This document shows, in pieces, positions 1,031 through 20,077 of a stretch of DNA of 64,000 nucleotides. Within the stretch, counting starts at the first letter, position 1. Every line of letters starts with the position of its first letter. This DNA is from Candidatus Bathyarchaeota archaeon. Lineage in GTDB: Archaea; Thermoproteota; Bathyarchaeia; Bathyarchaeales; Bathycorpusculaceae. The DNA lies in the NCBI GenBank assembly GCA_963826715.1, contig CAWGYA010000008.1, positions 928,001-992,000 of the forward strand. The letters run 5' to 3'. Below the pieces are notes generated by a model that had not been told where the DNA came from, did no database searches, and worked only from the letters and a program-made list of their open reading frames with translations. The position numbers and the translations under genes were made by a program.

Positions 1031-1327
1031 AACCAATAGTGCATGAGGCTGAGGAAACTTAGCGGTGGGCAAGGAAGAACTTGAAAGGCAAATCGCAAAA
1101 GCAGCAGAATCTCAAAGTTCAGGTTCATTGGAGATTAAAAGATTGAAAGAAATTATATGCTTAAATTCCTTTGCACCAAAGGTAAAGATAAATGCGAACC
1201 AGTTTATTGCACCTTTCAAATAACAAATACATGCCCTTTTCTTAGACAAATGGCGTTTTCTCGCAAAGAAATATTCTTTTCATGGATAATTTCAAATGTC
1301 AATAGGTCAATTTCACGGTAACATTTC

Positions 1328-2159
1328 TTAACTCGCTTCAGAGAATTTTATTCCGTACTCCCAAATTAGATTGGCCATATACTTTCCAGATTATATTAGA
1401 TTAATTTTGTTTAATGAACCTATTTTCTCTATAGTTATGTAACCATTTTTGTATCGAGTTTATATAGAATGGACTTGTTTAGATTAATTCAGTTCTTTTG
1501 CTGTATTCTTCGCCTCTCCTCTTTTGATCCAACTGTTTTTTCATCCTGGAAAAGCTCAATTTTTTTGGAAATAAGCAGACGTCAAAATTTACATCAGTAT
1601 TCATTGGTTTGCCTTTAAGAGGAAATGTTTGTTAAGACAATCTTTCCTGGTTCATAAGGGTAGTTTGATTTGAAAGTTCTCAAGCAACATTCCGTCAGGT
1701 TCAACGCAAATACTTATGCCATGTTGTTGTCTTTCTTCGTCATTTCGCGAATATCGATTTGCCCCGACATAGTAGACTTTTTGCGTTATGTGCCATTGCT
1801 GCGAGAGTGGCTACGACTGAAGCCAATCGTTCACCTGCAGACATGTTAACATATGCCAAGACTTATTTGGATTTTTCTTTCAATACCTAGACTAGAAAGG
1901 CTTATTCATTAGCTGTTTAATATCAAATAGGTTGACTTCTTGGACAATGACTTCTATTTTCTTCATTGTCAATTTCTTTTGACTTCGTTTAAGCAACGGA
2001 CTTGCTCCATATTCTCTGCTTTGAAATTTAGGTTCGGAGGTGGCAATCTACTAAGTAAACACGATTAGCGGAGAATTTTTCAAACATTATGACAGCTCTG
2101 TCAATTTCAAAACCCAATAGAATTATATGTACATGCTCTTCAAATTTCAAAACTTTCAT
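1328..2159 (-). pseudogene. DUF6293/HFX_2341-family regulator (CARF/Csa3-like N-domain plus C-terminal wHTH), frameshifted
   Basis: Fragments across frames: MKVLKFEEHVHIILLGFEIDRAV, SANRVYLV, AYVNMSAGERLASVVATLAAMAHNAK, VYYVGANRYS, and wHTH-like NGYITIEKIGSLNKINLI*SGKYMA. Confidence 0.75.
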
Positions 2160-2165
2160 CAACGT

Positions 2166-2188
2166 TTAAACATCTTAACCATGTTTAA
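2166..2188. promoter_or_regulatory. Candidate operator (8-bp inverted repeat) in the divergent promoter region
   Basis: TTAAACAT-N7-ATGTTTAA just upstream of the DUF6293 start. A TATA-like CTTATAAA lies near 2234-2241. Confidence 0.45.
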
Positions 2189-2260
2189 TGATAATTAAAC
2201 TTATTTAGTTAAACAACATTTTCTATCTTCAACCTTATAAAGACTTTGGAAGTTAGAAAA

Positions 2261-2684
2261 ATGTGCCCGAAAAACATCGAGGTTGAATTGACCGACCGCG
2301 CAGTAAATCGTGTGAGGGAATGTGGTTGCGACCCACTTGAAATAATTCACTACCTTTATTCTGGTGAGATTGCAAGTTTCTGAGAACTTTCAAGGGTTTG
2401 AAATTTTAGTACCATTCAAAGGAAGATTAACTGGCACATTTGATAAAGGCATATTTGTTGCCGAATCCTTTTTGTCGCTTATCCATCGTGGCAAGTATTA
2501 CAGTTATCATAGTGAATTTTCGAGAAACCAGTTTTTTGTAATAGTCTCTCTTGTTAGAAGAAGTGGATTAAGAAGAATTGTGGTTTCTTGTACTCGTAAA
2601 GTAGAAATATCATTGTCTGAGTTCGGTTTGACGGAATCTGGGAAACCTTCCATTATCCCAATAAGTAGGTACACCGGGGAGTGA
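2261..2684 (+). pseudogene. Hypothetical protein, probably frameshifted near 2375
   Basis: ATG at 2261 about 25 nt after a TATA-like box gives MCPKNIEVELTDRAVNRVRECGCDPLEIIHYL..., which stops at about 2383. The ORF 2364-2684 continues in another frame. Confidence 0.4.
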
Positions 2685-3067
2685 CAATTTTGAACTTAGG
2701 TATCATTTTCACAAAACGCAACTTCTTATTGATTGGTCTCTTAATCACGATAATAAGGGCTGCTGCCGCCTATATTAATTGGCCTGGTTTTTTATCTAAA
2801 ATTAATCCAGACGAAAAGATAGATTTGGCTAATGTCACTTATCCACAAGCCGCATATAGAAGCCAGAATTTGCCAATCTCGATTAACATTATGAATAATG
2901 GCAATTTCGGAAAAGATGTTATGGTCGAAGTTCTTTCATCAAATAGTGATAGAATTATCAATAATACTGGTATTTCTAGTGGGGGGAGCGCAAATCTTTT
3001 GGTTAATTTACCAGTTAAGAGTTGCGGTAACCAGTCTTTCAAAGTCAATGTCTATTGGAAGGCGTAG
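2681..3067 (+). CDS. Membrane-anchored hypothetical protein with a CARDB/Ig-like beta segment, probably truncated
   Basis: N-terminal hydrophobic helix, then an Asn-rich beta-type pattern (INIMNNGN...GISSGGSANLLVNLPV). Confidence 0.45.
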   Translation: MTILNLGIIFTKRNFLLIGLLITIIRAAAAYINWPGFLSKINPDEKIDLANVTYPQAAYRSQNLPISINIMNNGNFGKDVMVEVLSSNSDRIINNTGISSGGSANLLVNLPVKSCGNQSFKVNVYWKA

Positions 3068-3097
3068 GAGATATTGACCGATTTGGAAAGTGATCAT

Positions 3098-4012
3098 TTG
3101 CAAACCGCAACTCTGGAAGGAAACCGTTTTTTCATACCTATGGTGCCCCCTCAAATAAAACCTGAAACACTTTTGGCTGTATCGCTTCATACATCTTGGA
3201 TTGGAATTAACCTGTTCCAACTTAAACATTCAAGCTTTTATGAGAAAGCGAAAAGTAAAGGTGTCAGAGACGCCTTTGGAATCAATGATAAAATAAAAAT
3301 ATTCTTGACAACAATTAATGACGACAACTACCTTGTAAATTACTTCAATAAATCTAGTTGGTTTGAAGAATTAAAATCAGACTTGAATGGTTTTAGTGCG
3401 GACATGGTTATGGGACCTGATTGGTTTAGTTACAGAGAGGACTCACCAGAACTCAGAAATCGAAACATAAAAAAAGCAATTGATCTGAACTTAATGTTTA
3501 CATATCAAGAGAATATAATACCAACAATTCGAGGAAATTACTCCCAAGAAATTAAGCGTTTTATAAAACCTTTCAAAGAAATAGGAAAAAATTTGTTTGT
3601 TTTTACTGGCAGAGAATATCTAATTAATCTTGGTGATAGGAAGAGATCAGAATTTGAACTTCTTTCTCTCACATCCAATATCGTTAGAAATGAAAAAGTA
3701 AAATTAATTGTAACTGGCTGTAGCAGTCCAAGGCAACAAGAAAATTTACCTGATGTTTTTGGGTTTTCAGGTCTGGGATGGTTAATCAACGCTAAGAGAA
3801 GAATGTTAATTTCAGGCAAGACTTACCGATGGCTTTCATCACCTATATTTTCTTGCGCAGATCCGGATTGCTGCAATTCAATGAACAAATCTGAATTGGC
3901 GCAATCAAAAAATGACTCGATTCGTGCAATTCATAATTTGAAAGCAATTATTGCTAGACTGAACACGGCAAAACATATGCAACAATCTTGTTTGGGGGAT
4001 TTTGATGGGTAA
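3098..4012 (+). CDS. TGT-fold / DUF4417-like protein (putative nucleic-acid base-exchange or modification enzyme); ORF open from 3074
   Basis: MGPDWFSYREDSP..RNRN..IIPTIRG resembles the DUF4417 motif PDFSxYxDxP..N..VIPT. The C-terminal C-x4-CC...AIHNL resembles the TGT Zn site/HNL motif. AGTGAT SD-like sequence precedes TTG 3098. Confidence 0.5.
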   Translation: MQTATLEGNRFFIPMVPPQIKPETLLAVSLHTSWIGINLFQLKHSSFYEKAKSKGVRDAFGINDKIKIFLTTINDDNYLVNYFNKSSWFEELKSDLNGFSADMVMGPDWFSYREDSPELRNRNIKKAIDLNLMFTYQENIIPTIRGNYSQEIKRFIKPFKEIGKNLFVFTGREYLINLGDRKRSEFELLSLTSNIVRNEKVKLIVTGCSSPRQQENLPDVFGFSGLGWLINAKRRMLISGKTYRWLSSPIFSCADPDCCNSMNKSELAQSKNDSIRAIHNLKAIIARLNTAKHMQQSCLGDFDG

Positions 4013-4532
4013 CAAAAGCCGCTCAAAACATTATAATCATAAATCTGGTTATGGTGCTCAAGGAACATTTGCCCAAGTGCAATTTCCTCACATGATGCCT
4101 AGATTAAGTCGAACCGATGTTGACTTATTGCTCCCAGTTTTAAAAGAGGTTGGTAAAGTTATTTGCCCACCTGCAGCCATTCCAATAGAAATTTTATACC
4201 AGCTTTATACACATTCAGATGTGATAACAGAAGTAGGTTCTGCAATTAATAGAGGCGATTACAAGGGGGCAGTTATTGCTGCAGGATACCAAATAGTAAA
4301 AGATGTGGTTGGCACAACATTAAGTTCTAGTGCAAATCAATCAGTCGAAAAAGTTGCTTCAAGCGCAGGTGAGATAACTGGCAATGCATTTAAGGATGAA
4401 CAATCGAAAGAGCTTGCGAAAAAAGTTACTGAAGCCTCCGTAAAAGGAGGTGTAGAAGGGATTCAAGACAAAATAATAGATAAAACAATTGATTCCATAA
4501 AGGGATCGATAGAAGGTGAAAGAAGTGAGTAA
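4002..4532 (+). CDS. Hypothetical helical Gly/Ala-rich protein
   Basis: Intact 176-aa ORF overlapping the upstream stop (translational coupling). Confidence 0.65.
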   Translation: MMGNKSRSKHYNHKSGYGAQGTFAQVQFPHMMPRLSRTDVDLLLPVLKEVGKVICPPAAIPIEILYQLYTHSDVITEVGSAINRGDYKGAVIAAGYQIVKDVVGTTLSSSANQSVEKVASSAGEITGNAFKDEQSKELAKKVTEASVKGGVEGIQDKIIDKTIDSIKGSIEGERSE

Positions 4533-4812
4533 TCAAGCTAAGATTAAACTTATCAAGGATACTGTGATTAAGTCGATTTTATCACAAACTTCCGATAACC
4601 TTGCGAAAAACAGTGTAAGCGAGCAGAAAACTCAGGCTTTATTACGAATAACTGAACTGAAACTTGAGAGAATATTAGACAATTTTGACCAAGCTGACAT
4701 TCTACCTAAAAAGTTCTTATCTCAAGAAGAATTTGAAAGTCATTTACTTACTCTAATTGACTTATCCAAAGAAAGGTTAGTTGAAGACGTAAACCTCGAT
4801 AAGAAACATTAG
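4525..4812 (+). CDS. Hypothetical small helical protein
   Basis: Intact ORF (4516 or 4525 start, AGGTGA SD before GTG 4525) overlapping the previous gene. Confidence 0.6.
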   Translation: MSNQAKIKLIKDTVIKSILSQTSDNLAKNSVSEQKTQALLRITELKLERILDNFDQADILPKKFLSQEEFESHLLTLIDLSKERLVEDVNLDKKH

Positions 4813-5066
4813 CGGATATTGTTCTTGAGATTTGGAGAAAAGATGTTGAAAAAATTAATAGTTTCTTTTAAATAATCTTTGAACGTCAATTGAAAATATT
4901 GAATCATCAAAAAAGTTGCGCTTTTTTTAGTTATCATATTTTCTATGGCCTTCAGAACATAAGTAAAAGGAGTAGTGAGGTTTGTTTAAAAATTTGTTTT
5001 ACTTGTGCAAACAGTTTAAGAAAAGGACTTTCGGTATTGCTTATTTTTACACCAGACGTGTTGTAG

Positions 5067-5186
5067 TCGTTTTGGTATTTCGCCAGAGTTGCACACTCAG
5101 AACAAGAAACTTGCCAATTAATAGAAGCCGGCTTTGAATTCGTATGCGATTTTGGTGTTAACAAGGTTTTCAGAAAACGCAAGTGA
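5067..5186 (+). pseudogene. C-terminal remnant of an archaeal tyrosine integrase
   Basis: YFARVAHSEQETCQLIEAGFEFVCDFGVNKVFRKRK* matches the C-terminal tail (LIEAGFEYVC...FRKRK) typical of Bathyarchaeia/Nitrososphaeria integrases. In-frame stop at 5064; catalytic domain absent. Confidence 0.75.
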
Positions 5187-5233
5187 AATTTGGTGTAGAA
5201 AGTAAACCAAAAAAAATGGAAGGGGATTATTCG

Positions 5234-5257
5234 TAGCGGGCGGGAAGGGATTTGAAC
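5234..5257 (-). other. tRNA 3'-end fragment (att-like; T-loop, T-stem 3' strand, acceptor strand, G73; Arg/Lys-like)
   Basis: Minus strand GTTCAAAT-CCCTT-CCCGCCC-G-CTA. No matching 5' half (GGGCGGG...) nearby. Confidence 0.7.
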
Positions 5258-5259
5258 AA

Positions 5260-5288
5260 AGGACAGCGTGCCCTCAGGCATCTGTCCT
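5260..5288. repeat. GC-rich hairpin abutting the tRNA fragment
   Basis: AGGACAG-cg-TGCC-ctca-GGCA-t-CTGTCCT. Confidence 0.6.
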
Positions 5289-5402
5289 AATCCATCATTG
5301 GTAAATGAAGGATAGCGCTTTTCAAAGGATTGGAGATTATTCTGTATGTGGTTGATTGAGGCGTTATTCCGGAGCCAATTGGACCTAAAATATATTCGTT
5401 AG

Positions 5403-6367
5403 TTACCCAATTTCCACAGTTGTACCTCGATAAGCCATTGTGACCTTTTGAAACAGTTTTACAATGTCTAATGAGCAGAAAAGCGCTTTTGTTAGGTACT
5501 CGTGCTGGTAAATCATCATCTGCGCCTTCACGGGCAAATCGATCTGTGGTGGCTCAAAGAATCGGGCAACTGAATCTACTGGTTCCCCTTCAAGTTGGAT
5601 ATCTTCTTCGCGCAGCCCCGTCTTTTTAGCAATATAGGAAAGGTATGTGCCCTTCCAATCAAGCATCATAACTTCGCAGAGATTATGTCTATAGCTAAGG
5701 CATCGTTGCCCGTTAGAATAAGCCCCATGTTTACTGGTTTGCCCTTGGTTGGTCCGTTGCCCTCTATTCCCGTGCGCGCATCCATAATGGTTAGATTGGG
5801 CTTAAAAAGTGTGTAGAGGAGATAGAACACCTCGGGCAGATATGGGTGCAGATAGATTCGGCGGTTGCTGGGGATACAACCGAATAGGTTCTTAATCGCG
5901 CCGCTGTAAGCCATAAACTCATGCGTTTTCATCAATGGTAAATCAACGACAGCGTCAGCGTCAAGGATGGTTTTGGGCAGAAACAGACGCTTCACCGATG
6001 TGCCATTGTGGAATTTGACTTCGACGATTTTGTCCTCGCTGAGGTTAATGGCAGTTCCACCCGCTGCCTCTACCGCTTCCTTCATGCCTGTCTTGTCAAA
6101 TGCATCCCAGCAAGGATAGTTGATGCCGTTGGATTCGCCCACTACCACTTCGCTGTTGCCATCGCGGAGCAAACCGACGAGTTCCCTCATCAGAGCTGGG
6201 CTAGTGACAACACCGGGCAAGTATTTAGGGTGGCTGAGGTTGGGTTTTATGTAGATACATTTTTTGCCTCGGAGTCCTGAATTAGCGACGGCTTCTTTGA
6301 GGATGCTGCTTATGTCCTTTGATGAACGGAAGATTTTTACGGTTTTCTGCTCAGGTATCATTTCCAT
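5403..6367 (-). CDS. DUF362 Fe-S protein, split by a 1-nt frameshift near 5670 (sequencing error or pseudogene)
   Basis: Motifs YIKPN, VGES, LPLMKTH, SGAIKNLFGCIP and EGNGP. ORFs 5666-6367 and 5403-5669 join as ...IDIISAK/MMLDW. Confidence 0.8.
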
Positions 6368-7778
6368 TTTTCACTCCCATTAAGCAACCGGGGTCACCGT
6401 TGAGCATGTCTCCGTTGTGGTAAGCTGCAGAGCGGGCTCGGCACCCGCCGCAAATGAACTTGTATTGGCATTTGCCGCAGGAGCCTTTGAGATTGGCTCT
6501 GTTGCGGAATTTGTTGAACAGAGGTGCGTTTAGCCAAACGTCCTGGAACTTCTGTGTTTTCAGGTTCCCAACGTTTACCGGCAAAAATACGCAGGGGCGC
6601 AGGTCGCCTTGTGGAGAAATTGAGCAGTAGAGCCTCCCAGCGCCGCATCCGCCGATGAAGTCACCCAGCGGGACAGCCTTCTTCGTGACCTTGACGGTTT
6701 GCATGTGCGCCAGTGCCATCGTGACTTCGCCTGTACCAGAGTCTCCTTGGCACTGAAGGGCGACACGTGCCAGCTGGGGCGCGGTGGCAAGTATGGTGGT
6801 TTTGCATCCCGCTGACATACGGCTAAGCAGATAGTGCATAACATCTTCTCGTTCTTGAGGAGAGAGATCTTGGTCAAAATGCGCTTTGCCTCTGCCCGTT
6901 GGAATAAAGTTGAAGTAGGTGAAGCGTTCCGCATGTATCTCTTCTGCTAAATCGATAATGGCTGGTAACTCTCCAAAGTTGTTTTTACCAACCGTCGTTG
7001 CAATACACACGCACAAGTCAGCTTCGACGCAGTTTTTTAGACCTGCCACTGCCTTGTCAAAGGTACCGGGGACGCCACGAAAGTCGTCGTGTGTTTTGGC
7101 TGAAGCGCCGTCTATGCTTACATCGATGTAGTTGACTCTTGCTTCTTTGATTTTTCGCACGTTTTCTTTTGTGAGTAGCGTGCCATTAGATGCAAGTGAA
7201 ACGTAGAGTCCACGATCAGCGGCATGTCGCGCGACTTGGAAGAAGTCTTTTCGAGTTAAGGGTTCTCCGCCGCTGAATGCCAGAGCAGTTACCTGAGCAT
7301 CTGCCAATTGGTCAACAACAGCGAGGGCTTCCTCTGTGGTCAACTCCTCCTTTTCAACATTGCCGCTATTACTATAGCAATGCTTGCATTGCAGATTGCA
7401 TTTATGAGTAAAATCCCAAACCACCAGGAACGGTGCAGTAAGTGACATAGGTTTTCTAATGCCAAAATGGGCAAACGACTCAACCAAGTTAAGAACTGCG
7501 TTCCGCGCATAGGGGTCAGTTAGGAGCTTCTCGACTTTTGCCCGTTTAAAACCTAATGCTCTGCGCAGAAATTCTATCCAAAACGCAATAATCTGCGAAT
7601 AGAGGTTGTTGCATTTTCTGCATTTCTTATCAGGGTTGCCCCCATAATCATCCAGCGCCGCCTCCAGAACAGTTCTGCTGCAGGCAGGGCATTTTTTGAG
7701 TGATAGCTGGAGCATCCGCTTGGTCATGGGCATGGAGACGATGGCGTTCCAGAACGTGTCATGGCTTAGGATACTCAT
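6351..7778 (-). CDS. Radical SAM/SPASM protein with N-terminal CxxC...CxxC; candidate GMGT synthase (Gms)-family
   Basis: APFLVVWDFTHKCNLQCKHCY, SGGEP, FNFIPTGRG, TAPQLARV, FIGGCGAGRLY and SPASM CxxCxxxxxCxxC. The rSAM/SPASM call is firm; the Gms assignment is from recall of the family. Confidence 0.8.
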   Translation of the reverse strand: MSILSHDTFWNAIVSMPMTKRMLQLSLKKCPACSRTVLEAALDDYGGNPDKKCRKCNNLYSQIIAFWIEFLRRALGFKRAKVEKLLTDPYARNAVLNLVESFAHFGIRKPMSLTAPFLVVWDFTHKCNLQCKHCYSNSGNVEKEELTTEEALAVVDQLADAQVTALAFSGGEPLTRKDFFQVARHAADRGLYVSLASNGTLLTKENVRKIKEARVNYIDVSIDGASAKTHDDFRGVPGTFDKAVAGLKNCVEADLCVCIATTVGKNNFGELPAIIDLAEEIHAERFTYFNFIPTGRGKAHFDQDLSPQEREDVMHYLLSRMSAGCKTTILATAPQLARVALQCQGDSGTGEVTMALAHMQTVKVTKKAVPLGDFIGGCGAGRLYCSISPQGDLRPCVFLPVNVGNLKTQKFQDVWLNAPLFNKFRNRANLKGSCGKCQYKFICGGCRARSAAYHNGDMLNGDPGCLMGVKNGNDT

Positions 7779-8083
7779 GGTGTGCTCCGAATTTAGTTTG
7801 AATGTTAATTGGGCACTTAAGGGTGCTTAAAGATTTCTCTAAAAACGCTTAGTAGTAAAATTCATGAATATTGCTAAAGAAAAATCACTTCGCCAATTGA
7901 AGCGCAAAATAAACCGCTAAATCTACAAAGTTGCAGGTATGTAACCCTCAAAGTCTAATTACACAACTTAGAGTAACTTCTATCACCACTAAACAATCAC
8001 AAAGACCCGAAATCTCCTGTGATACAATTGCCCACTGTATAATTAAGGAGGGTTAGAGAAATTCGAACGTAAGAGCGCAAAGT

Positions 8084-8719
8084 TTAGGGCTCGTTTTTTT
8101 GCATAATATGCTTGGCTATCTCCAAGTCCTCCATGGTGTTCACGTTGAGAACAACTTCGCTTTCCTCAGTGATTAATGCAGCCGTTTCCACTTTGCCTTC
8201 GCCCAGAACCTTTGCTCCGTTTATGACGTTGATGCCTGAAACTGCGTACCACACACCTCGATACTCGTCGGTACTGGAAATCGACAATCCCAAGCTTAGT
8301 CGCTTCTTGATGGGCACAAATACTGCTAGAAAGTCTTTGCCGCAAACCTCAAACTCACCCACAATCCTATCCAAAACCGCGCCGGTAATCCCGGGAACGT
8401 CAGAAGGCATCGTTAGTACTGGACCCATCCAACCCAGTTTAGACACAGCCTGTTTTAAATCATCATGGTAACCTTTCGCATCAGTATGAATGAATTTCCA
8501 GCCCATGTTGCGGCAGTGGTTTTCAGTTTTAGGCGTATTTGTGCTTGTTATGATGTAGAACTCGGAAACCTTATTGGAAGACAAAACGGCCTCAGCTACC
8601 CAATCCAGTAGTGGTTTACCCAAAAACGGCAACATCGGTTTCTCTGTACGCGCCCCCATTCTGCTGCCTTTACCACCAGCCATAATCAAAGCAGGAACTA
8701 TCAAATTGCCCATCCCCAA
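8084..8719 (-). CDS. cobY: CobY-like NTP transferase (adenosylcobinamide-phosphate guanylyltransferase), copy A
   Basis: MAGGKGSRM..EKPML, TPKT, GYHDDL, GINVI, NVNTxEDL; directly downstream of a cobS-like gene. Confidence 0.75.
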   Translation of the reverse strand: MGMGNLIVPALIMAGGKGSRMGARTEKPMLPFLGKPLLDWVAEAVLSSNKVSEFYIITSTNTPKTENHCRNMGWKFIHTDAKGYHDDLKQAVSKLGWMGPVLTMPSDVPGITGAVLDRIVGEFEVCGKDFLAVFVPIKKRLSLGLSISSTDEYRGVWYAVSGINVINGAKVLGEGKVETAALITEESEVVLNVNTMEDLEIAKHIMQKNEP

Positions 8720-9534
8720 AGCACCAAAGCAAACAGAACCAGCGTCACCATCCTCGCTACCTCATTGGTGGCTCCAATCATGTCACCTGAAACTCCGCCG
8801 AATACAACGTTGGAAACTTTATTCATCACCAACGCCACTGGAAAGCTAACAAACACCAAGCAAACCGCAAAAAAACCCAAAATCGTGTTTCCTGTTATAT
8901 AAAACATAAAAAACGCAATTATGACCGAAAATATGTATGCGGCTGTGTTGAGGGGTTTTTTGGCTTTTGCAAGAAAAATCGAGCCTAAACCCTTATGTGA
9001 AGGTTTTCCAACCCAGACAATCGTCACCATAGAGAGCTTCGCGGTAACTTCAGCCAAAATAATAGCTGCAAACCCAAACGTTGGATTAACCAAACACAAA
9101 CCCACAACAGCCAGCATCTCCACACCCATGGCCAAAACCGCGCCTGCATAGCTAACTGTCCAAGCATGCGCCTTCATTTTACGGTCATGCACGTTGCGTA
9201 AGCCAATTGCGTTGCCGAGGTCAATTAAGCCATCAAAATGCTGCAAGCCCGTGAGCGCCAGAAGAAGCGCAATCGTCATAGCTGCTGGAATCGCTGATGC
9301 AAGAACCGTAGGTAAAGAAACATAGACATTGACTATGTTAAACAGAAAACCCACGATTGCACTTGATAACACAAAATATAAACCGCCAAGCAATCCGATG
9401 AAACCCCCAATTAACGGAAAAAGCCACATATTCTCAGCAGTTGTAAAAATAAAATCCTCTTTTCCTCCAACTGGGATAATGGTTAGGAAAGACAGCAAAT
9501 CCCTAAAAGTTTTTATAGCTTTCATCGGCGACAT
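8701..9534 (-). CDS. cobS: CobS-like membrane protein, diverged copy A
   Basis: FLTIIP, FPLIG, TGLQHFDGLID and FGGVSGDMIGATNE. Two conserved Asp positions are altered. Confidence 0.8.
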   Translation of the reverse strand: MSPMKAIKTFRDLLSFLTIIPVGGKEDFIFTTAENMWLFPLIGGFIGLLGGLYFVLSSAIVGFLFNIVNVYVSLPTVLASAIPAAMTIALLLALTGLQHFDGLIDLGNAIGLRNVHDRKMKAHAWTVSYAGAVLAMGVEMLAVVGLCLVNPTFGFAAIILAEVTAKLSMVTIVWVGKPSHKGLGSIFLAKAKKPLNTAAYIFSVIIAFFMFYITGNTILGFFAVCLVFVSFPVALVMNKVSNVVFGGVSGDMIGATNEVARMVTLVLFALVLWGWAI

Positions 9535-9584
9535 ATACCTACAAACTTTGCCAAAAGAGAATATAGGCTTTGTCGTGACTCGGG

Positions 9585-10520
9585 ATGGCTGACCTTAAAA
9601 ACAAAAATGTAATGGTGACTGGAGGAGCAGGCTTCATAGGATATCACCTCTGCAGTAAACTCTCGCAGTTAACAAATAACTTGTCGATTTATGATAATCT
9701 CTCTAGTGGCAAAATCGAAAATGTTAAAGATGTTCCAGTCGCCCATTTCATTCAAGGAGATATCTTAGACCAGAAAACTCTCAATGGTACCCCAAAACAG
9801 GATTTGATCTATCACTTAGCCGCGCAAGTTGTGGTACCATATTCCATGGAGAATCCACTAATTGATTTCGAAACAAACGCCAAAGGAACAGTGTGTGTCC
9901 TCGAGAAAGCACGTAAAGACGACGCCAAAGTTGTGTTTGCGTCAAGCGCCGCAGTTTATGGCAACCCGACACAGCTTCCAACAGCCGAAGAATACGGCTT
10001 TCACCCCTTCTCATGCTACGGCTTATCCAAAGTTGTGGGCGAAGAATACTGTCAGATGTATCGAGAACAATACGGTCTCGACATTGTGGTCGCGCGGTTC
10101 GCTAACGTCTATGGGTTGCGCTGTCATGGGGTTATTCACGACTTCCTTGAAAAACTTGCCCGAGATCCAAACAAATTGGAAATCATTGGCACAGGACAAC
10201 AAGCACGGGATCTGGTACATGTTTCAGATGTGGTTGATTTGTTGATTACAGTAGGTTCTTTAGAGTCAACTAACGGTAAAACCTATAATGTAGGTTACGG
10301 CAAAACAACCAAAATTATCGACTTAGCCAAAATGATGCTAAAAATACTTAACCTGCAAAACAAAACAATCGTCACAACTACTGGTGTGTCTTGGCAAGGA
10401 GACATTCAGACAATATGGTTCGATAACAGTAAAGCAAAGCGAGAACTAGGTTGGAACCCTAAAGTAACTTTGGAAGAGAGCATAAAAGAAGTCATTGCTG
10501 ACAGGAATCTGCCAGCATGA
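9585..10520 (+). CDS. NAD-dependent NDP-sugar epimerase/dehydratase (GalE-like SDR)
   Basis: VTGGAGFIG, HLAA, SSAAVYG, YGLSK, RFANVYG. Confidence 0.92.
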   Translation: MADLKNKNVMVTGGAGFIGYHLCSKLSQLTNNLSIYDNLSSGKIENVKDVPVAHFIQGDILDQKTLNGTPKQDLIYHLAAQVVVPYSMENPLIDFETNAKGTVCVLEKARKDDAKVVFASSAAVYGNPTQLPTAEEYGFHPFSCYGLSKVVGEEYCQMYREQYGLDIVVARFANVYGLRCHGVIHDFLEKLARDPNKLEIIGTGQQARDLVHVSDVVDLLITVGSLESTNGKTYNVGYGKTTKIIDLAKMMLKILNLQNKTIVTTTGVSWQGDIQTIWFDNSKAKRELGWNPKVTLEESIKEVIADRNLPA

Positions 10521-11419
10521 CCGATTCCTCGCTGACACGAGGGTTAATTGCTCTTCTACGTTTACCTTATTGGCTTATGACTGGCGGATTAGCGGTCCTA
10601 ACATCGTTTGCTATACTTAAAGGAAATTTTGTCGACATCCAAACAACGTTGGGTCCTCTAAGTGTTGTCACGGTGGCTCTTTTGACGTTCTTTTCGCTTT
10701 CTTTCATTGCATCCGGCGGGTTTGCTATTAATGATTATTATGACCGTGACAGTGATGCAGTCATTAAACCGAAGCGCCCAATACCATCAGGTGCACTTTC
10801 CTACAAGCAAGCAATCACTGTTTCAGCTGTTTTTTTTGCGTTAGGGTTAAGCATGGCGTTTCTTATCAACTGGTTAAGCTTCACAATTATAGCTATTGAC
10901 TCACTATTGCTTTTGGTATATTCATTTTTGATTAAGAGGAAGTCTGGTTTTGCAGCAAACCTGTTAATGGGTGTATTAACTGGTACAGCGTTTATTTACG
11001 GGCAGGCAACTTCAACTGGCACAATAAGCTTAGTTTCATTAAGTCTTTATCCAATTGCCTTCGGCACTATTGGAGGTAACATATTGCGAGACATATTTAG
11101 TGTGGAGGGCGACGCCAAAGTTGGATACCCCACTTTGCCCCAGAAAATCGGTAACATGAGTGCCGCCAAAGTCGGCGGATTTTTCTTTCTATTAACTGGA
11201 GTTCTAGCACCCTTGCCTTATTTAATAGGTGAATTCACGGTTTATTATCTGCCTTTAATCCTGCTTTGGAGCATACTGCTAATCTACTCCGCAATAAGGT
11301 TATTCACATCTGCATCAACTGTTGCTAGCATCCGTAAATATGAGCGTATCGTGACAATGTCAATGATGTTACTACCTCTGGCTCTGATAGTTGAAGCCAT
11401 TGTGGGATGGTTAATGTGA
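10517..11419 (+). CDS. UbiA-family prenyltransferase, digeranylgeranylglyceryl phosphate synthase (DGGGPS)
   Basis: NDYYDRDSDAVIKPKRPIPSG and RDIFSVEGDAKVGYPTLP; multiple TM helices; adjacent to tes. Confidence 0.85.
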   Translation: MTDSSLTRGLIALLRLPYWLMTGGLAVLTSFAILKGNFVDIQTTLGPLSVVTVALLTFFSLSFIASGGFAINDYYDRDSDAVIKPKRPIPSGALSYKQAITVSAVFFALGLSMAFLINWLSFTIIAIDSLLLLVYSFLIKRKSGFAANLLMGVLTGTAFIYGQATSTGTISLVSLSLYPIAFGTIGGNILRDIFSVEGDAKVGYPTLPQKIGNMSAAKVGGFFFLLTGVLAPLPYLIGEFTVYYLPLILLWSILLIYSAIRLFTSASTVASIRKYERIVTMSMMLLPLALIVEAIVGWLM

Positions 11420-12882
11420 GCGAAACAAAAAGCATCTGCCCAGAGTGCCAAAAGAAAATCGATGCTCAACTTACCAATGTCAACGGCAAAATCCAAATTT
11501 CCAAACAATGCCCCGAACACGGCGATTTTAAAGCTACCCACTGGCAAAGTAAGCCTATCTTCAGTCACATGCAAAAATATGACCAGTTCCAGTACCTCGG
11601 CGACCTTAATGCGCCCAAAAACCCCGATGGCTGCCCCTACGTTTGTGAGACCTGCCAAAACCACGCATCTGGAACTGTAATTGGTGTTATTGATGTAACG
11701 AAGCGATGCAATTTCCGTTGCGCGGTGTGCTTTTCAACTTTTCCTGACCAGGAAGAGGACTATGAACCCACCAAAGAAGCCTTAATTGATATGCTTGAGT
11801 TTGCGGCCAAGGCTAATCCCAAACCACCAGCGATTCTTTTTTCAGGAGGTGAGCCGCTTGAGCGGGAGGACATGCCTGAAATCATCGCAGCTGCCCACAA
11901 ACTTAAATTTATGACGATTCTAGCAACCAACGGCACCCATTTGGTTACAGACGAAGGATTAGCCCGGAAGCTCAAAGATAACGGATTAAATATCGTTTAC
12001 CTTTCTTTCGACAGTTTTCATGAAGAATTCAACAAAAAAGTTCGTGGGCGACCATTAGTAGATATCAAGTTTAAAGCTATCGAGGTTTGCCGCAAGCATG
12101 ATATGGAAATCATCCTTGTCAATACGCTGATGAAAAGCCTCAACGATAGTGAAGTTGGAGACATGATTCGTTTTGCAGCTAAAAATACTGATATTGTGCG
12201 TGGTTTAATCTTTCAGCCAATTGCCTTTACAGGTCGTGCCACTGAGAATCCTTTTCGCGAAAACTTCCGTGAATGGAGTTTCGCAGAAGACGTTGAAAAG
12301 CAGACCAATGGTGAAATCAAAAGCACCGATCTATTTCCAATGTCAGTTATGACTTCGCCCATTAAAATTATGCGTAAATTCATGATGAAACCGTGGCCGC
12401 TTTTCAGTTGTAGTCCCCAGTGTGGCATTGTAAATTGGATCTACGTTTCTAAAGAGGGCAAGATGTTTCCAATTAACCGCTTCGTGAATTTTGATCGTTT
12501 CTTCAGTTACATCCGCAAAACTGCTGAGGGTGCTGAGTCAAAGGGGAAATTGGCATTGCTTTCTTCCCTGTTTATGGGTTCGATGTTGTCAATGAATATG
12601 CTACTTGTAACCCGCGAGGTCGGTACCTTCACCCTAATAAAGAGCATAATGCGGATGCATCTTTCACCTTCATATCAATCGTTAGGTAAAATTCGAAGAA
12701 GAATTTTCCTTTTAGGTTGCATGGCGTTTATGGATAGCTACAACTTTGATGTGAATCGTGTGCGTCGATGCGTAGTGCATTACATTACTCCTGATAAGAA
12801 AATTATTCCCTTCTGCGCCTATAATAACGTGCATCGAGTTGCTATCGAAAAAGCTTATGCAATGAAACGAAAGAAAGCTTAA
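11407..12882 (+). CDS. tes: Tetraether lipid synthase (GDGT-MAS/Tes, MJ0619 family radical SAM)
   Basis: TKSICPEC...KQCPEHG, GCPYVCETC, IDVTKRCNFRCAVC and C-terminal FMDSYNFDVNRVRRCVVHY.TPD..IIPFCAYN. Confidence 0.88.
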   Translation: MVNVSETKSICPECQKKIDAQLTNVNGKIQISKQCPEHGDFKATHWQSKPIFSHMQKYDQFQYLGDLNAPKNPDGCPYVCETCQNHASGTVIGVIDVTKRCNFRCAVCFSTFPDQEEDYEPTKEALIDMLEFAAKANPKPPAILFSGGEPLEREDMPEIIAAAHKLKFMTILATNGTHLVTDEGLARKLKDNGLNIVYLSFDSFHEEFNKKVRGRPLVDIKFKAIEVCRKHDMEIILVNTLMKSLNDSEVGDMIRFAAKNTDIVRGLIFQPIAFTGRATENPFRENFREWSFAEDVEKQTNGEIKSTDLFPMSVMTSPIKIMRKFMMKPWPLFSCSPQCGIVNWIYVSKEGKMFPINRFVNFDRFFSYIRKTAEGAESKGKLALLSSLFMGSMLSMNMLLVTREVGTFTLIKSIMRMHLSPSYQSLGKIRRRIFLLGCMAFMDSYNFDVNRVRRCVVHYITPDKKIIPFCAYNNVHRVAIEKAYAMKRKKA

Positions 12883-12916
12883 GAACAAGTTCATATTGTT
12901 GCGCTTCCCATTCTGA

Positions 12917-13269
12917 TTATAGCATTGTTATCTGAGTCCGTCCGAGGTAGAAGGGTCCATTGTACACCGTGTTATTTTCATATAATGCATTGTGCCATAC
13001 TTCAAATTGCAGGGTAGAGTTATCTAAAGCGTAGTTTCCCTGCTCGGGCATAAACGTTGCCTCGCCAGCAATCTCAAGCACGTTAGAATCGTTTATCATT
13101 GAATTTCTGAGTCTCTTAACAACCAGTAACCGTCATCTAAGGCAGGGGTGTAACAATTGATATTGGCGTCAGCTTGATTAACAAAAAATGTTACAGCGAG
13201 AATACCTATGCAGGCTAAAGCAATTGAAATATGACTGAATTTAGCCATAGTTATCGCTTGATATAACAT
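12917..13269 (-). pseudogene. Remnant of a secreted hypothetical protein
   Basis: GGAG SD plus ATG 13269 gives a signal-peptide-like MLYQAITMAKFSHISIALACIGILAVTFF. The frame breaks near 13110 into ORF 12917-13099. Confidence 0.35.
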
Positions 13270-13424
13270 AGTTTTTCTCCTTTATCTTGTTTTAGGAAAT
13301 TTGTTAAATATTTTATTTGTTGACAAAAATTAATTCGAGTGTATAGTTCTCGATTGAGTGTTGTTGAACTACATAGTCAATTATTTAATTAGAATCGTTT
13401 AGGAGGTTGCATCCATAGTCAACT

Positions 13425-13925
13425 TCAAACAACCTCTATGTCTAATATACAATTGTTATATCCTGTAAACTCCAACGATCCATCCCCGTTAACAAGATAC
13501 AACTCGAAAACAACCGTATAACTACCCACAGCATTTTCTGTGAGTGTGATCCTATGTTGTTGGTGTGATCCGTCGACCAAACTCAGATCATAGGTGTCCA
13601 CGGGGGTTATGTCTACGGGGGACCCTTTGTAAACCTGGGTGATCTTGGTTTGAACCTGATAGTTATGGCTGCTGGTACCGCCCATATGGTTCTCAACTGT
13701 AATATAGACGCTAAAGGTGCTGTTTTGGTTGTGAACTAGTGTGTGGGGGTAGTCTACGGCTTGATTGTTTGCGTCTAAAATTGAGAGGGTATTGTAAGGT
13801 TCGGGTTGGGGTCTATAAATCAGGTAGTATCCCGCAATAGTTGAAGCTACAATAATAAGAGCAATGAAAACGGCGACTGCATAGCCGACTTCATCGCTTA
13901 AACCGATTCGCTTTCCAATGTGCAT
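13425..13925 (-). CDS. DUF1616-like membrane-anchored protein (start uncertain)
   Basis: One TM helix, then EPYNTLSIL..DYP..VYITVENHMG..VVFELY. Confidence 0.7.
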   Translation of the reverse strand: MHIGKRIGLSDEVGYAVAVFIALIIVASTIAGYYLIYRPQPEPYNTLSILDANNQAVDYPHTLVHNQNSTFSVYITVENHMGGTSSHNYQVQTKITQVYKGSPVDITPVDTYDLSLVDGSHQQHRITLTENAVGSYTVVFELYLVNGDGSLEFTGYNNCILDIEVV

Positions 13926-14628
13926 AACAGACCCTAAACGTTTTAGCATCCAAAAACCCCTTAAATATAGTGGTAAAAATCCTGATCCCCGACTGAAAAG
14001 GTTTAAGTTTGGTTTTACCGTATGTTCGAGGCTTGTAAGTTGTGGGTATTTCCGCCATATTATACCCTTCTCTTGCGAATTGTATGAGCATCTCTGTAGC
14101 AAATGGCATATCTGTTTCTTTGAACTTTACACTATCATATTTTTTGCGGTCGATTGCTCGAAAACCAGATTGTGTGTCACTGAGGAATTGACTATAGAAA
14201 AAGTCGTAGGTGAAAGTGATAGCTTTGTTACCAATAAAGTTGAGAAACCCCATAGCCTTGTTAGGATCATACATGCGAGTCGCTAAAACCAGGTCCGCGT
14301 CTTTCTCGATTAAACGGCTGACGAGGCGATCGATGTGTTTGAACTCGTAAGTACCATCAGCATCAACCATGATAAGTATGTTTCCCTTTGCGTTTTTCAT
14401 ACCTGTCCTTAGTGCAATTCCATATCCGCGCCTCGGTTCAATAATTAAACGACATTTACCAGTTTGGTTAACCAATTCTATGGTTCCATCTGTTGAGTTG
14501 CTGTCCACGATGATGATTTCTTTGGGGTAACTCACATGCCTATCGATAGTGTTTATAGCTTCCAGTATGGTACCCGCTTCGTTTAAGGTTGGAATCACGA
14601 CCGAGACCATTTCAACTTTTGATGTCAT
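13891..14628 (-). CDS. GT2 glycosyltransferase (DPM1/polyprenol-phosphate sugar synthase-like)
   Basis: VVIPTLNEA, IVDSNSTDGT, GYGIA, DADG, DTQSGFRA, YKPRTYGKTKL. Confidence 0.9.
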   Translation of the reverse strand: MTSKVEMVSVVIPTLNEAGTILEAINTIDRHVSYPKEIIIVDSNSTDGTIELVNQTGKCRLIIEPRRGYGIALRTGMKNAKGNILIMVDADGTYEFKHIDRLVSRLIEKDADLVLATRMYDPNKAMGFLNFIGNKAITFTYDFFYSQFLSDTQSGFRAIDRKKYDSVKFKETDMPFATEMLIQFAREGYNMAEIPTTYKPRTYGKTKLKPFQSGIRIFTTIFKGFLDAKTFRVCYAHWKANRFKR

Positions 14629-14673
14629 CAGCTAACTTCCAGCTTAAAGGGCTATATTGTTTCCGCATCGAGG

Positions 14674-15831
14674 TTAAATAAGTCCTTCGTATATTTCAAG
14701 TAACTTTTCAACGTTTGAATCCCAGCTAAATTGTTCCTCAACCCGGGCTCGTAACTCAGTAGAGCGAGAAGAGAAATCTCCATCTATAAACTCCAAAATT
14801 GCCTCAGCAAGTCGATGTGGCTGGTTGGGTGGAACCAGTTTGCCATAGCCTGCAAGTAAGATTTCTTTAATACCGCCTACGTCGGTTGCTACTACTGGGA
14901 GTCCGCATGCCATAGCTTCCATCGCCACCAGCGGTAATCCTTCACCTGACTTAGAAGGTAACACAAATAGGTCTGCCAAGTTATAGTATACTGGCAAATC
15001 CGCGTCGCTGACAAATCCTGTTATCTTAAAGTTTGATTCTATACCCAACTGTGCCACAGCTAATTTTACACTATCAAGGTCAGGTCCTTTTCCGACAGCA
15101 ACGAACACGATTCTTGGGTTCTTTTGTATAGCGATTCTGGCGCAGTCCAGCAACGTATCTATTCCGTTCTTATAAACAAGCCTTCGAACAGTCAAAATCA
15201 CCAATGCATTGCTAGAAATACCAAGTTTACGCCGCATTTCTTCACGTTTACTATACAGAGGCTTGAATCGAGCTAAATCTACACCATTATAAATGACTTT
15301 CACTTTGCTCGGTTTTGCACCTAGCCGCAGCACGTAGTCTTTAGTGGAATTGCTTATGGCTATAATTTTGTCGGCGGAGTTCAGGTTTTGTTTTCCTACT
15401 GATAAATCGTTTAGTCGTTCAACCTGATCAAAGATGTTGTTGTATTCAATGAAAGTGTTGTGTTGGGTTAGAACAAAGGGTTTGCCATAGAATTTAGCAA
15501 GCTTGCCTGCTACAAGCGAGGTCAGGTAGGGGTGTCCATGTGCATGGATGAGTTGGCTGGATTTAATAGCCTTATCAAACGTTCCAAAACTTGTAGCTGT
15601 GGGAATCGAGTAGGGAATACCCAGTCGAAAGCCAGTGTTGAGAGATTCATAGCATTCAACAGGCACTCCATCAATGATGTAACTTTTAGGTGTGCCTATA
15701 CGGTTGGTAACTACGGTTGGAGCGTAGTTTTTATGAAGTAGACGTTTACTCTGTTCATTAGTCACCTTCTCAATACCACCGACGTGCGGCAGAAAAGTGT
15801 GGGTGATTATGCAGAGCCGAGTTCGAACCAT
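14674..15831 (-). CDS. GT4 glycosyltransferase
   Basis: PHVGGIE, IHAH, YNGVD, EGLPLVAMEAMACGLPVVATDVGG. Confidence 0.92.
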   Translation of the reverse strand: MVRTRLCIITHTFLPHVGGIEKVTNEQSKRLLHKNYAPTVVTNRIGTPKSYIIDGVPVECYESLNTGFRLGIPYSIPTATSFGTFDKAIKSSQLIHAHGHPYLTSLVAGKLAKFYGKPFVLTQHNTFIEYNNIFDQVERLNDLSVGKQNLNSADKIIAISNSTKDYVLRLGAKPSKVKVIYNGVDLARFKPLYSKREEMRRKLGISSNALVILTVRRLVYKNGIDTLLDCARIAIQKNPRIVFVAVGKGPDLDSVKLAVAQLGIESNFKITGFVSDADLPVYYNLADLFVLPSKSGEGLPLVAMEAMACGLPVVATDVGGIKEILLAGYGKLVPPNQPHRLAEAILEFIDGDFSSRSTELRARVEEQFSWDSNVEKLLEIYEGLI

Positions 15832-15891
15832 TCGGAACCAACGCTTAAACCCTCAACCGCGATAGTATTATAATTTGCGGAAAAATGTAAA

Positions 15892-16371
15892 CTATGTTGG
15901 TGTCCCTGTATCTTTGAGTGATTTGGTGTAAACATTCGAAGATGCACCCGCTACCAAGGCACCAATGGCGTCATTTGTCAAAGGAGGCAGCTCTTTTAAG
16001 ATGCCCGGTTTAGCTTGGTCGAAACGAACAAACTCAAACATACCTCTTGATCCGCCGATGTAGGTGGCGATTGCTATGCCGATGAGTTCGTCAGCAACAA
16101 GCCCCGGTCTGCCCATGAAACGTTCAACCGTTAGACCTGGAATACGCCCGTTTTCAGCTTCTTGTTGAGCCTGGAAGGCGGCGACAATGAGAGTGGAGAT
16201 ATTAACATCAGTTAAAATGTCAAGGAATTCTTCTTTAAGAAGCGCAGTGGCTTTTTCTGCATTTTCAATGCCTGGATGAGGTACATACATTTCAAGTGCA
16301 CTGTCGATTAGACTTTGGAGGGTTATTCCTCTCTTCTCGAGATATTCAAGCATTGGTGGGTTGATTATCAT
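15892..16371 (-). CDS. cobZ: Archaeal alpha-ribazole phosphatase CobZ (PgpA-like)
   Basis: DVNISTL, LVADELIGIAIATYIGG..GMFEFVRFDQAKPGIL..LPP. ATG at 16371 is the likely start. Confidence 0.85.
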   Translation of the reverse strand: MIINPPMLEYLEKRGITLQSLIDSALEMYVPHPGIENAEKATALLKEEFLDILTDVNISTLIVAAFQAQQEAENGRIPGLTVERFMGRPGLVADELIGIAIATYIGGSRGMFEFVRFDQAKPGILKELPPLTNDAIGALVAGASSNVYTKSLKDTGTPT

Positions 16372-16804
16372 CTTGACCTTGGTTTTTACTGGTGAAGAAT
16401 GGTTTAAAGTTTTGCACAGGTTTACTTGTTTGATTTTAAGTGACATTTAGGCAGTAATTGGAATTTTTGGTTGATTTTATCTTGTTATATGCGCTCTTAC
16501 TTATTCTTAGGAAAGTTTTAAGACAGGATAGCTCAAGTTTATTGATTGTGATCTTTTGGTTTTTTTCTTTATTTATTATCCTAAATATTGATGTTGCTTG
16601 ATTGATTTGAGAATTTTTCCGTAAGCCTTATATTAAATATGTTGGATAAACCAACCAACGTTCGGGTGATGATTTGCTAAACATAAAGAAAACCGCTAAT
16701 CCTTCGAGCAAAGTTTTATCAGCAGCTTTATTAACTAAATGTTTGGCGAGAAAAACCTTATTTTACTGTTTAACTGTTTATAATCCATCAGGAGGAAAAA
16801 ATAG

Positions 16805-17473
16805 GTGAAAGTTGTTGCTTCATGGAGCGGCGGCAAAGATAGTTGCTACGCTTTCTACCTTGCTATCCAACAAGGTCACCAGGTACTCAGCCTAATTACT
16901 ATGATGATGAGCAAAGAGAAATCTAACTTCCATATGATACCCACAGGCATCATAGATGCTCAAGCAGAGGTAATGGGCGTTCCGTTAATTAAGAAAAACA
17001 CCTCAGCAAATACCTACGAGGATGATTTTAAAGCAATGCTCTCTGAATGCAAAGCAATGGGCGCCGAGGGTCTAGTAACAGGCGATATCTATGAGGTAGC
17101 CGGGCATGAAGAAGGCTGGTTGAGCCGAATTTGCAATGAAGTAGGTTTAGTTCCAGTAAAGCCTTTATGGATGGGTGATACTAAACAGATTTACCTCGAT
17201 TACCTTAAAACAGGCTTTAAAGCAACAGTTGTCCGCACCAATAAAGTCCTTAGTCTCGCTTGGTTGGGACGCGTTTTGGATCGCGAATTCTATGACGATA
17301 TTTTGGCCATGGGCGGAGTGGATGTATGCGGGGAAGGCGGAGAATACCATACTGTAATAACTGACGGACCTAACTTTACCTCTAAAATTGAACTGTTGGA
17401 AACCGAAAAGCAAAGATTAGAGAACGGCTTTGGATATTTGGAAATCAAGAAGTGGAATGTAACCCCCAAATAG
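16805..17473 (+). CDS. DUF71/COG2102 PP-loop ATPase (diphthine-ammonia ligase family), probably the B12-associated subgroup
   Basis: SWSGGKDS, TGDI, PLW, CGEGGEYHT.ITDGPNF; first gene of the cobT-cobS-cobY operon. Confidence 0.85.
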   Translation: MKVVASWSGGKDSCYAFYLAIQQGHQVLSLITMMMSKEKSNFHMIPTGIIDAQAEVMGVPLIKKNTSANTYEDDFKAMLSECKAMGAEGLVTGDIYEVAGHEEGWLSRICNEVGLVPVKPLWMGDTKQIYLDYLKTGFKATVVRTNKVLSLAWLGRVLDREFYDDILAMGGVDVCGEGGEYHTVITDGPNFTSKIELLETEKQRLENGFGYLEIKKWNVTPK

Positions 17474-17484
17474 CGTGACCCGCC

Positions 17485-18573: not shown

Positions 18574-18580
18574 GACGCCC

Positions 18581-19968: not shown

Positions 19969-20077
19969 TGGCTTGGAAAATGTCACTATTGTCTTCTTAT
20001 ATCCGGGTTTTGCCTATACCTCAATTGTTCTGAATAAATATGATAAGATAGAAAATATGATGCCCACGATAGAGCGT

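Follow-up and report, generated by a model that had tools for sequence, protein, structure and literature searches.

A Gms-family radical SAM/SPASM gene with a lineage-specific DUF362 partner of predicted LarA-like fold, close to tes in a Bathyarchaeia genome

Gms, a homologue of AhbD that is described as carrying an additional N-terminal extension of ~100 amino acids (annotated as COG4001) that makes up a hydrophobic pocket (PMC11214058, PMC11186832), has been validated by expression for T. guaymasensis, T. celer and P. furiosus (PMC11214058), and both in vivo and in vitro for M. okinawensis (METOK_RS04425, termed here Mo-Gms; PMC11186832). According to a review, it is without the rubredoxin domain found in the tetraether lipid synthase Tes (PMC13459092). 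With 188 Gms sequences of Bathyarchaeota already catalogued by Garcia et al. (PMC11214058), a further gms gene from this group is not new and, by itself, adds little to what is in print. Here, we analyze a stretch of 64,000 nucleotides from a Candidatus Bathyarchaeota archaeon (assembly GCA_963826715.1, contig CAWGYA010000008.1, positions 928,001 to 992,000; "the window"), in which a gene for a radical S-adenosylmethionine (SAM)/SPASM protein overlaps a gene of the DUF362 family and lies close to tes. Our reading, to which we assign a probability of roughly 0.6, is that the radical SAM/SPASM protein is a Gms-family enzyme that likely converts glycerol dialkyl glycerol tetraethers (GDGTs) into glycerol monoalkyl glycerol tetraethers (GMGTs), and that it is accompanied by a lineage-specific DUF362 protein with a predicted LarA-like fold. 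The features on which this reading is built are as follows (aa, amino acids):

6351..7778, minus strand: Gms-family radical SAM/SPASM protein, 475 aa (Pfam Radical_SAM, Fer4_12 and SPASM; BLASTP; trees; AlphaFold2 model)
5666..6367, minus strand: DUF362 piece 1, 233 aa, containing the whole Pfam domain (PF04015, 168.2 bits against 24, profile positions 1-199 of 200)
5403..5669, minus strand: DUF362 piece 2, 88 aa, the helical C-terminus, encoded in another frame (counterpart of residues ~233-320 in intact homologues)
5664..5680, minus strand: frameshift site with one base missing (DNA alignment, single gap column)

The assignment of the 475-aa protein to the Gms family, which an initial annotation of this DNA had proposed, is well supported by an end-to-end alignment with a validated enzyme, by homology of the N-terminal domain, by the predicted structure and by its separation in trees from AhbD-like proteins. 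An alignment of 470 columns joins residues 10-467 of the window protein to residues 10-461 of Mo-Gms (homologue P0396) at 39% identity and a two-sequence BLASTP E-value of 2e-116, values that lie within the filter described by Li et al. (E<1e-50, identity >30%, >420 aa; PMC11186832); Garcia et al. give a threshold of E<=1e-80 to Tg-Gms and at least 400 aa (PMC11214058). When a fingerprint of the residues numbered in PMC11186832 was applied to the first 389 proteins collected, none proved to be Mo-Gms, but the fingerprint flagged locus L015, which led to P0396, and the latter is identified as the M. okinawensis enzyme by its NCBI organism name, by its UniRef label ("GMGT synth...") and by 9 of the 10 residues numbered in that paper. 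The closest homologues of the window protein are labeled Candidatus Bathyarchaeota, Bathyarchaeia or Bathycorpusculum. Its radical SAM motif, C127-x3-C131-x2-C134, has all three cysteines invariant in our family alignment (A6), as are seven cysteines of the SPASM domain (Pfam, 40.1 bits; C378, C396, C434, C437, C443, C446 and C465), and a further cysteine in the SPASM region, C385, is typical of most family members. Of the four family motifs named in the initial annotation, APFLVVWDFT (position 115), TAPQLARV (332) and FIGGCGAGRLY (374) are present letter for letter, and the remaining one, given as FN.VPTGR, reads FNFIPTGR.

The N-terminal six-helix domain occupies residues 1 to ~115, and the alignment of the protein to the AhbD model begins only at residue 118. 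When residues 1-117 are searched alone, they match P0396 (E 9.8e-4) and, in all, 187 of the 349 homologues, but none of the 14 AhbD/NirJ-like sequences that are without the N-terminal extension. An AlphaFold2 model of the window Gms (predicted local distance difference test score, pLDDT, of 86.6) shows six helices at the N-terminus, a pair of bridging helices (predicted at 307-322 and 335-343) and a beta-hairpin at 351-365 (strands 351-354 and 362-365), and this predicted architecture agrees with the description of Gms given in PMC11186832. Its closest match among solved structures is SuiB, the template used in that same paper, others being PqqE and SkfB; the copy of the PDB that was searched contained no structure of Gms or AhbD.

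The N-terminal domain of the window protein also contains two CxxC pairs (C30/C33 and C53/C56) that Mo-Gms does not have, and at least two CxxC motifs occur in 108 of the 263 extension-bearing homologues; the residues could form a Zn- or Fe-binding knuckle. Two homologues depart from the usual plan. In P0382 (583 aa), a UbiA prenyltransferase domain is naturally fused to a Gms-like N-terminal domain and radical SAM core, the protein apparently ending before SPASM, and this fusion links the Gms-like family to isoprenoid lipid synthesis. P0251 (956 aa) is a Gms-like protein into which an intein carrying a LAGLIDADG domain is inserted, immediately past the region of the radical SAM motif. Variants of Tes with similar inteins occur.

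Trees place the window protein apart from the tetrapyrrole enzymes. In a tree of 101 rows, from which four partial rows were dropped (L041, L047, L074 and L078), the sequences without the N-terminal extension are set apart by a branch with support 98, and the same split has support 96/95 in a tree of 67 rows with bootstraps; one of these sequences is an AhbD-like gene next to ALAD in locus L080. Within the 67 rows, the clade of the window falls inside a larger clade, also with support 96/95, together with Mo-Gms and with homologues from Archaeoglobi, Thermoproteaceae, Ignisphaera and Methanobacteriaceae, as well as tes-linked homologues from bacteria. Clustering with AhbC, AhbD or PqqE, which the initial annotation named as refuting a Gms assignment, is not seen; the best curated models, AhbD and NirJ2, stay under their cut-offs. 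Homologue P0294 was at one point taken for a Thermococcales Gms and was dropped as such, its relatives being Omnitrophota and WOR-3 bacteria; neither the homologue searches nor the genome scan recovered a Thermococcales Gms.

To place the pairing of gms with DUF362 in context, we scanned genomes with a 7-sequence alignment (an earlier one, of 25 sequences, was too divergent as a query) and considered the 80 loci that were best by similarity to P0294, which form a sample and not a census. A comparison of all open reading frames (ORFs) by phmmer found DUF362 directly 3' of gms, on the same strand, in eight of the 80 listed loci (L011, L013, L014, L018, L019, L026, L049 and L074). Spacing between the two genes is -25 to +3 nt in the seven loci measured (L074, whose gms is split, being left out) and -17 nt in the window, where the DUF362 ATG at 6367 overlaps the gms stop by 17 nt and a second ATG, at 6361, by 11 nt, as the translational coupling noted in the initial annotation implies. 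Seven of the linked loci (again without L074, a partial sequence) and the window form a single clade with support 100, which takes in relatives with a Gms identity of 76-88% and, at the far end, Candidatus Bathyarchaeum (55%). The pairing is kept down to 55% identity in Gms and 46% in DUF362, and the pairwise identities of the two proteins correlate at r=0.97 over 28 pairs that are not independent; indirect support comes from eight pairs of Gms and DUF362 homologues whose contigs are equal in length, including contigs of only 3.8-8.3 kb. The pairing is real, conserved and confined to one Bathyarchaeia lineage, and because the adjacency is seen in one clade, at 8 of the 80 listed loci, we regard DUF362 as a lineage-specific partner and not as a general accessory of Gms. 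The DUF362 part of the initial annotation is supported in part, tight adjacency being conserved within this one clade.

Elsewhere, gms keeps other company: a B12-binding radical SAM gene (a Gmm-type partner) is adjacent in eight of the other listed loci, and tes adjoins in several bacterial loci. A Latescibacterota locus (L004:2798-4914) has a ferredoxin-type DUF362 gene and a PAP2 lipid phosphatase gene upstream of a gms-like gene. It was considered as a second, independent association and rejected: the DUF362 gene lies on the opposite strand, ~1.1 kb upstream, with PAP2 between, and it is one case among 72 loci.

DUF362 is not one ORF in the window. The gene is broken into products of 233 and 88 aa by a 1-nt frameshift, the ATG of piece 2 overlapping the TGA of piece 1 (5666-5669), and piece 2 matches no Pfam family. 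Alignments of three intact homologues run through piece 1 and on into piece 2 without a gap, and a DNA alignment of the junction places a 1-nt deletion in the window relative to L011, L013, L014, L018 and L074. Among the 120 best DUF362 homologues, 115 are 315-325 aa long, the rest being the 233-aa product of the window and four proteins of 259-278 aa. The frameshift may stem from the assembly or be a true lesion, and an assembly error is plausible because relatives among metagenome-assembled genomes (MAGs) with long contigs are similarly split, in gms (L074:9833-11231), cobS (L074:8044-8989) and cobY (L018:567-1187), which suggests that indel errors are frequent in such long-contig assemblies. 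The protein natively has Met-Met at the junction, so that piece 2 keeps a start codon and a split DUF362 protein is conceivable.

For the intact homologue P0123, a model with pLDDT 88.8 was compared with the PDB by Foldseek, and the top 18 matches are all of the LarA (lactate racemase) or malate racemase type (E-values down to 7e-6, probability 1.0), with TM-scores to LarA structures of 0.37-0.48 at 10-15% identity. This LarA-like model agrees with the membership of both DUF362 and DUF2088 in Pfam clan CL0471 (PMC11770544). DUF362 has no Pfam match to Lar_N or LarA_C, and a search of PDB sequences with the DUF362 profile returned nothing useful. Three residues, H148, K158 and H173, are invariant in the DUF362 alignment, and a weak hhalign alignment (probability 6%) pairs H148 and K158 with the "PH..GG.K" segment in a LarA homologue; in LarA, these positions are the His of the active site and the Lys to which the nickel-pincer cofactor is tethered. 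As a lead, H148, K158 and H173 may form a LarA-like His-Lys-His cofactor site. A true LarA homologue (Lar_N plus LarA_C; L055:237-1505, minus strand) adjoins a gms-like gene, on the opposite strand, in a Promethearchaeota MAG, a single case.

The name "DUF362 Fe-S gene" given in the initial annotation, and the role of electron donor derived from it, are not borne out. Neither DUF362 piece has a Pfam match to Fer4 or any other Fe-S domain, and the DUF362 alignment (A4) has only two nearly invariant cysteines (C85 and C163). Cys-rich C-termini with CxxCxxC-type motifs occur in that alignment in the bacterial protein of L004 only, and the Bathyarchaeia proteins have a helical C-terminal extension in the same place. 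Because the protein is without an Fe-S domain and has a LarA-like fold, a role as electron donor is without support. A catalytic or substrate-handling role is possible, and DUF362 may still be an accessory factor.

By analogy with Mo-Gms and the Thermococcales enzymes, GDGT from the nearby Tes would most likely be the substrate of the window Gms. The enzyme would couple the two biphytanyl chains of this lipid to give an H-shaped GMGT, by way of 5'-deoxyadenosyl radical chemistry and with two auxiliary [4Fe-4S] clusters, its N-terminal helical domain presumably binding the lipid. DUF362, co-inherited with gms, would probably act on or with the same lipid, and is not required by Gms in general.

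Several observations weigh against this reading. Mo-Gms residue C372, the second cysteine of AuxI, is Ala in the window protein, a loss for which C385 may substitute. An approximately unbiased (AU) test does not reject a placement of the window clade beside the AhbD/NirJ-like outgroup (difference in log-likelihood of 10.2, p-AU 0.26); because the test allows this basal placement, the position of the clade inside the extension-bearing family is not fixed, and it may be an early branch. The one validated reference in the trees and comparisons is Mo-Gms, the Thermococcales enzymes being outside the set. Other Gms-like clades of Bathyarchaeia (L008, L016, L023, L024, L025, L061, L066 and L067) have no DUF362, and the window clade could be a paralogue making another product; exact orthology of the window Gms to confirmed GMGT synthases is likely, and GMGT would be its product by analogy with the validated enzymes. 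As for the partner, the association of gms with DUF362 is a single evolutionary event, DUF362 is absent from all 132 immediate neighbors examined with Pfam at the other 72 listed loci (62 of which have at least 1 kb of downstream sequence), the DUF362 gene in the window is broken while gms is intact, and validated Gms enzymes are active without a cognate DUF362, as described for in vitro assays and heterologous hosts (PMC11186832, PMC11214058).

These points bear on the rival readings to different degrees. That DUF362 is an operon passenger, brought next to gms in one Bathyarchaeia ancestor and with no functional tie to Gms, is possible but doubtful: the single origin on the tree, the absence at 72 of the 80 listed loci, the broken gene beside an intact gms and the independence of validated Gms from any such partner are all what a passenger would show, and yet the stop codon of gms and the start codon of DUF362 overlap or nearly abut in the window and in all eight linked loci, even where identity has fallen to 46-55% and although the flanks have been rearranged. 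We consider it rather unlikely that the window clade is a Bathyarchaeia-specific Gms-like paralogue that works with the LarA-fold DUF362 to modify tetraethers in some way other than by the plain GMGT bridge. At least four further Gms-like clades are present in Bathyarchaeia, some of them next to a B12-binding, Gmm-like radical SAM gene as canonical gms is (e.g., L008), only the window clade carries DUF362, its four-Cys site in the N-terminal domain is missing from Mo-Gms, its basal position is allowed by the AU test, and H148, K158 and H173 of DUF362 are spaced like the His-Lys-His site of LarA (by the 6% hhalign alignment); against this stand the end-to-end alignment with Mo-Gms, the equal domain plan of the two proteins and the 96/95 clade that they share. 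Improbable, in our estimate, is a two-enzyme Bathyarchaeia system of gms and DUF362, in which the LarA-fold protein, retaining a His-Lys-His cofactor site, would carry out hydride transfer or isomerization on the tetraether, before or after the radical C-C coupling or by setting the bridged isomer, and in which the product would not be plain GMGT.

Two further readings concern function more broadly. A role of DUF362 as Fe-S electron donor for the radical SAM enzyme is very improbable; many DUF362 proteins elsewhere have a ferredoxin-like domain, and that of L004 has CxxCxxC-type motifs at its C-terminus, but the window protein and its relatives have no Fer4 match, a helical extension where the ferredoxin would be, two near-invariant cysteines and a LarA-like fold. 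Hardly credible is the possibility that the radical SAM protein is a tetrapyrrole enzyme of the AhbD/NirJ type or a SPASM peptide maturase and not a lipid enzyme. The best curated NCBIfam models are indeed AhbD (303.5 bits), NirJ2 (282.4) and TIGR04053, and the solved matches are PqqE, SkfB and SuiB; however, all curated models stay under their cut-offs (500 for both AhbD and NirJ2; AhbC 213.3 against 650, PqqE 146.6 against 381; TIGR04053 likewise), and because the validated Mo-Gms gives the same pattern, with AhbD and NirJ2 best and under cut-off, such scores are not evidence against membership in the Gms family. Moreover, the N-terminal domain is missing from 14 of 14 AhbD/NirJ-like sequences, no heme or peptide genes lie near gms in the window while the true AhbD-like gene of L080 adjoins ALAD, and the UbiA fusion of P0382 ties the Gms-like family to isoprenoid lipids.

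The remaining genes of the neighborhood, with the lipid cluster itself, are as follows:

7779..8083, minus strand: AT-rich spacer of 305 nt, 5' of gms (direct sequence reading)
8084..8719, minus strand: CobY-like nucleotidyltransferase, a divergent paralogue (Pfam NTP_transf_3; TIGR00454, 124 against a cut-off of 174.7)
8701..9534, minus strand: CobS-like membrane protein, a divergent paralogue (Pfam CobS, 94 bits; TIGR00317, 107.9 against 110)
9585..10520, plus strand: NAD-dependent epimerase/dehydratase of the short-chain dehydrogenase/reductase (SDR) type, first gene of the tes unit (Pfam Epimerase and GDP_Man_Dehyd)
10517..11419, plus strand: UbiA-family prenyltransferase, DGGGPS-like (Pfam UbiA; PDB 6m31)
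11407..12882, plus strand: tetraether lipid synthase Tes (NF045702; PDB 7tol)
13891..15831, minus strand: GT2 and GT4 glycosyltransferases (Pfam)

The start of gms lies 3.6 kb from the start of tes, within the 4 kb given in the initial annotation. The epimerase, UbiA and Tes genes form a unit (9585-12882, plus strand) with start/stop overlaps of 4 and 13 nt that is transcribed divergently from cobS. Its Tes scores above the curated NCBIfam cut-off (NF045702, 460.1 against 450) and, over residues 6-486, matches the solved GDGT-MAS structure (PDB 7tol, E 4.5e-111). The epimerase-DGGGPS-tes operon of the initial annotation is therefore present as a unit, and its Tes is secure, but the middle gene is less so: the closest PDB match of the UbiA protein is DGGGPS (6m31, E 1.6e-30), and its scores stay under the curated DGGGPS cut-offs (157 against 296 for PRK12882, 157.2 bits; 164 against 269; and 113 against 353 for PRK12883). 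The CobY-like and CobS-like genes that lie between gms and this unit had gone unmentioned. Judging from sequence alone, gms and DUF362 probably make up a separate transcription unit with its promoter in the spacer at 7779..8083. The gene order tes-ubiA-epimerase / cobS-cobY-gms-DUF362 is common to L011, L013, L014 and L074, and the GT4/GT2 glycosyltransferase genes that flank the lipid cluster have orthologues beside tes in the same four loci. A gene for CDP-archaeol synthase (CarS) lies at 40720-41238 of the window, ~28 kb from tes.

The CobS/CobY pair on the gms side has a counterpart at 18581-19360 (CobS) and 19354-19968 (CobY), which makes two pairs within 11 kb. The second pair belongs to a genuine CobT-CobS-CobY operon (17485-19968), whose CobT and CobS are above their cut-offs (CobS at 152 for TIGR00317); genes for CbiQ and two ABC ATPases come next, and the operon lies ~5 kb past tes in the window, in L011 and in L074. 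The gms-side pair is divergent, under the curated cut-offs and 32% identical to the pair of the genuine operon (32% also for CobY alone against 19354-19968), and the slot on the gms side is filled, in L013 and L014, by a cobalamin-type CobY along with a cluster-type CobS. We considered the gms-side CobS and CobY as builders of lipid head groups and set this idea aside: because the genuine operon is nearby and a cobalamin-type CobY fills the slot in L013 and L014, a local duplication of cobalamin genes, unrelated to lipids, is the simpler reading.

Directly 3' of DUF362, the stretch 2364-5281 has ~35% GC, compared with 42-48% nearby, and contains five co-directional ORFs, none with a match in Pfam or PHROGs. 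Its position is occupied by GT4/GT2 genes in relatives and by a gene for a terminase large subunit in L018, and no tRNA was found within positions 1-20000 of the window; an integrated element is one possible explanation of the stretch.

Anoxic sediments are rich in Bathyarchaeia, an uncultured group to which published metagenome surveys assign most gms sequences from sediment and peat (PMC11214058), and the reading of GMGT biomarkers is consequently affected by which Gms-like gene of Bathyarchaeia makes H-shaped tetraethers. The new element at this locus is a conserved, translationally coupled, LarA-fold partner of the DUF362 family in one clade, previously unreported: "DUF362" does not occur in the body text of PMC11214058 or PMC11186832 or in the five text supplements of the former, a literature search with "DUF362" and "PF04015" found no paper tying the family to archaeal lipids, and a search on Npun_F2552 found nothing. 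If the partner is functional, it would be a first handle on the function of a large family and would point to an unrecognized step of tetraether modification; were the two-enzyme system real, it would imply a lipid specific to Bathyarchaeia and a first function for DUF362.

Among described systems, Gms itself is the closest, since both proteins have a helical N-terminal domain, a radical SAM core, bridging helices with a hairpin and SPASM, and both have tes in the same genome. They differ in the two CxxC pairs of the N-terminal domain, which the window protein has and Mo-Gms does not, in the extra AuxI cysteine, which is at a "YC" position in the window protein and within "CGC" in Mo-Gms, and in their neighbors, DUF362 standing in the window where many archaea have the B12-binding radical SAM gene for Gmm (PMC11214058). 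AhbD and NirJ share a homologous radical SAM/SPASM core, and AhbD gives the best curated model at 303.5 bits, but they have no N-terminal domain, form a separate clade and sit in another genomic context, and the window protein stays under the AhbD cut-off of 500. LarA resembles DUF362 in its predicted fold (match to LarA and malate racemase at probability 1.0) and, weakly, in the spacing of His, Lys and His, while DUF362 is shorter (320 compared with ~420 aa) and has no match to Lar_N or LarA_C. Finally, the gms-gmm and gms-tes/mss clusters described by Garcia et al. in 2024 (PMC11214058) resemble the window in that gms is clustered with tetraether genes, and what sets the window apart from them is that DUF362 is the direct operon partner of gms.

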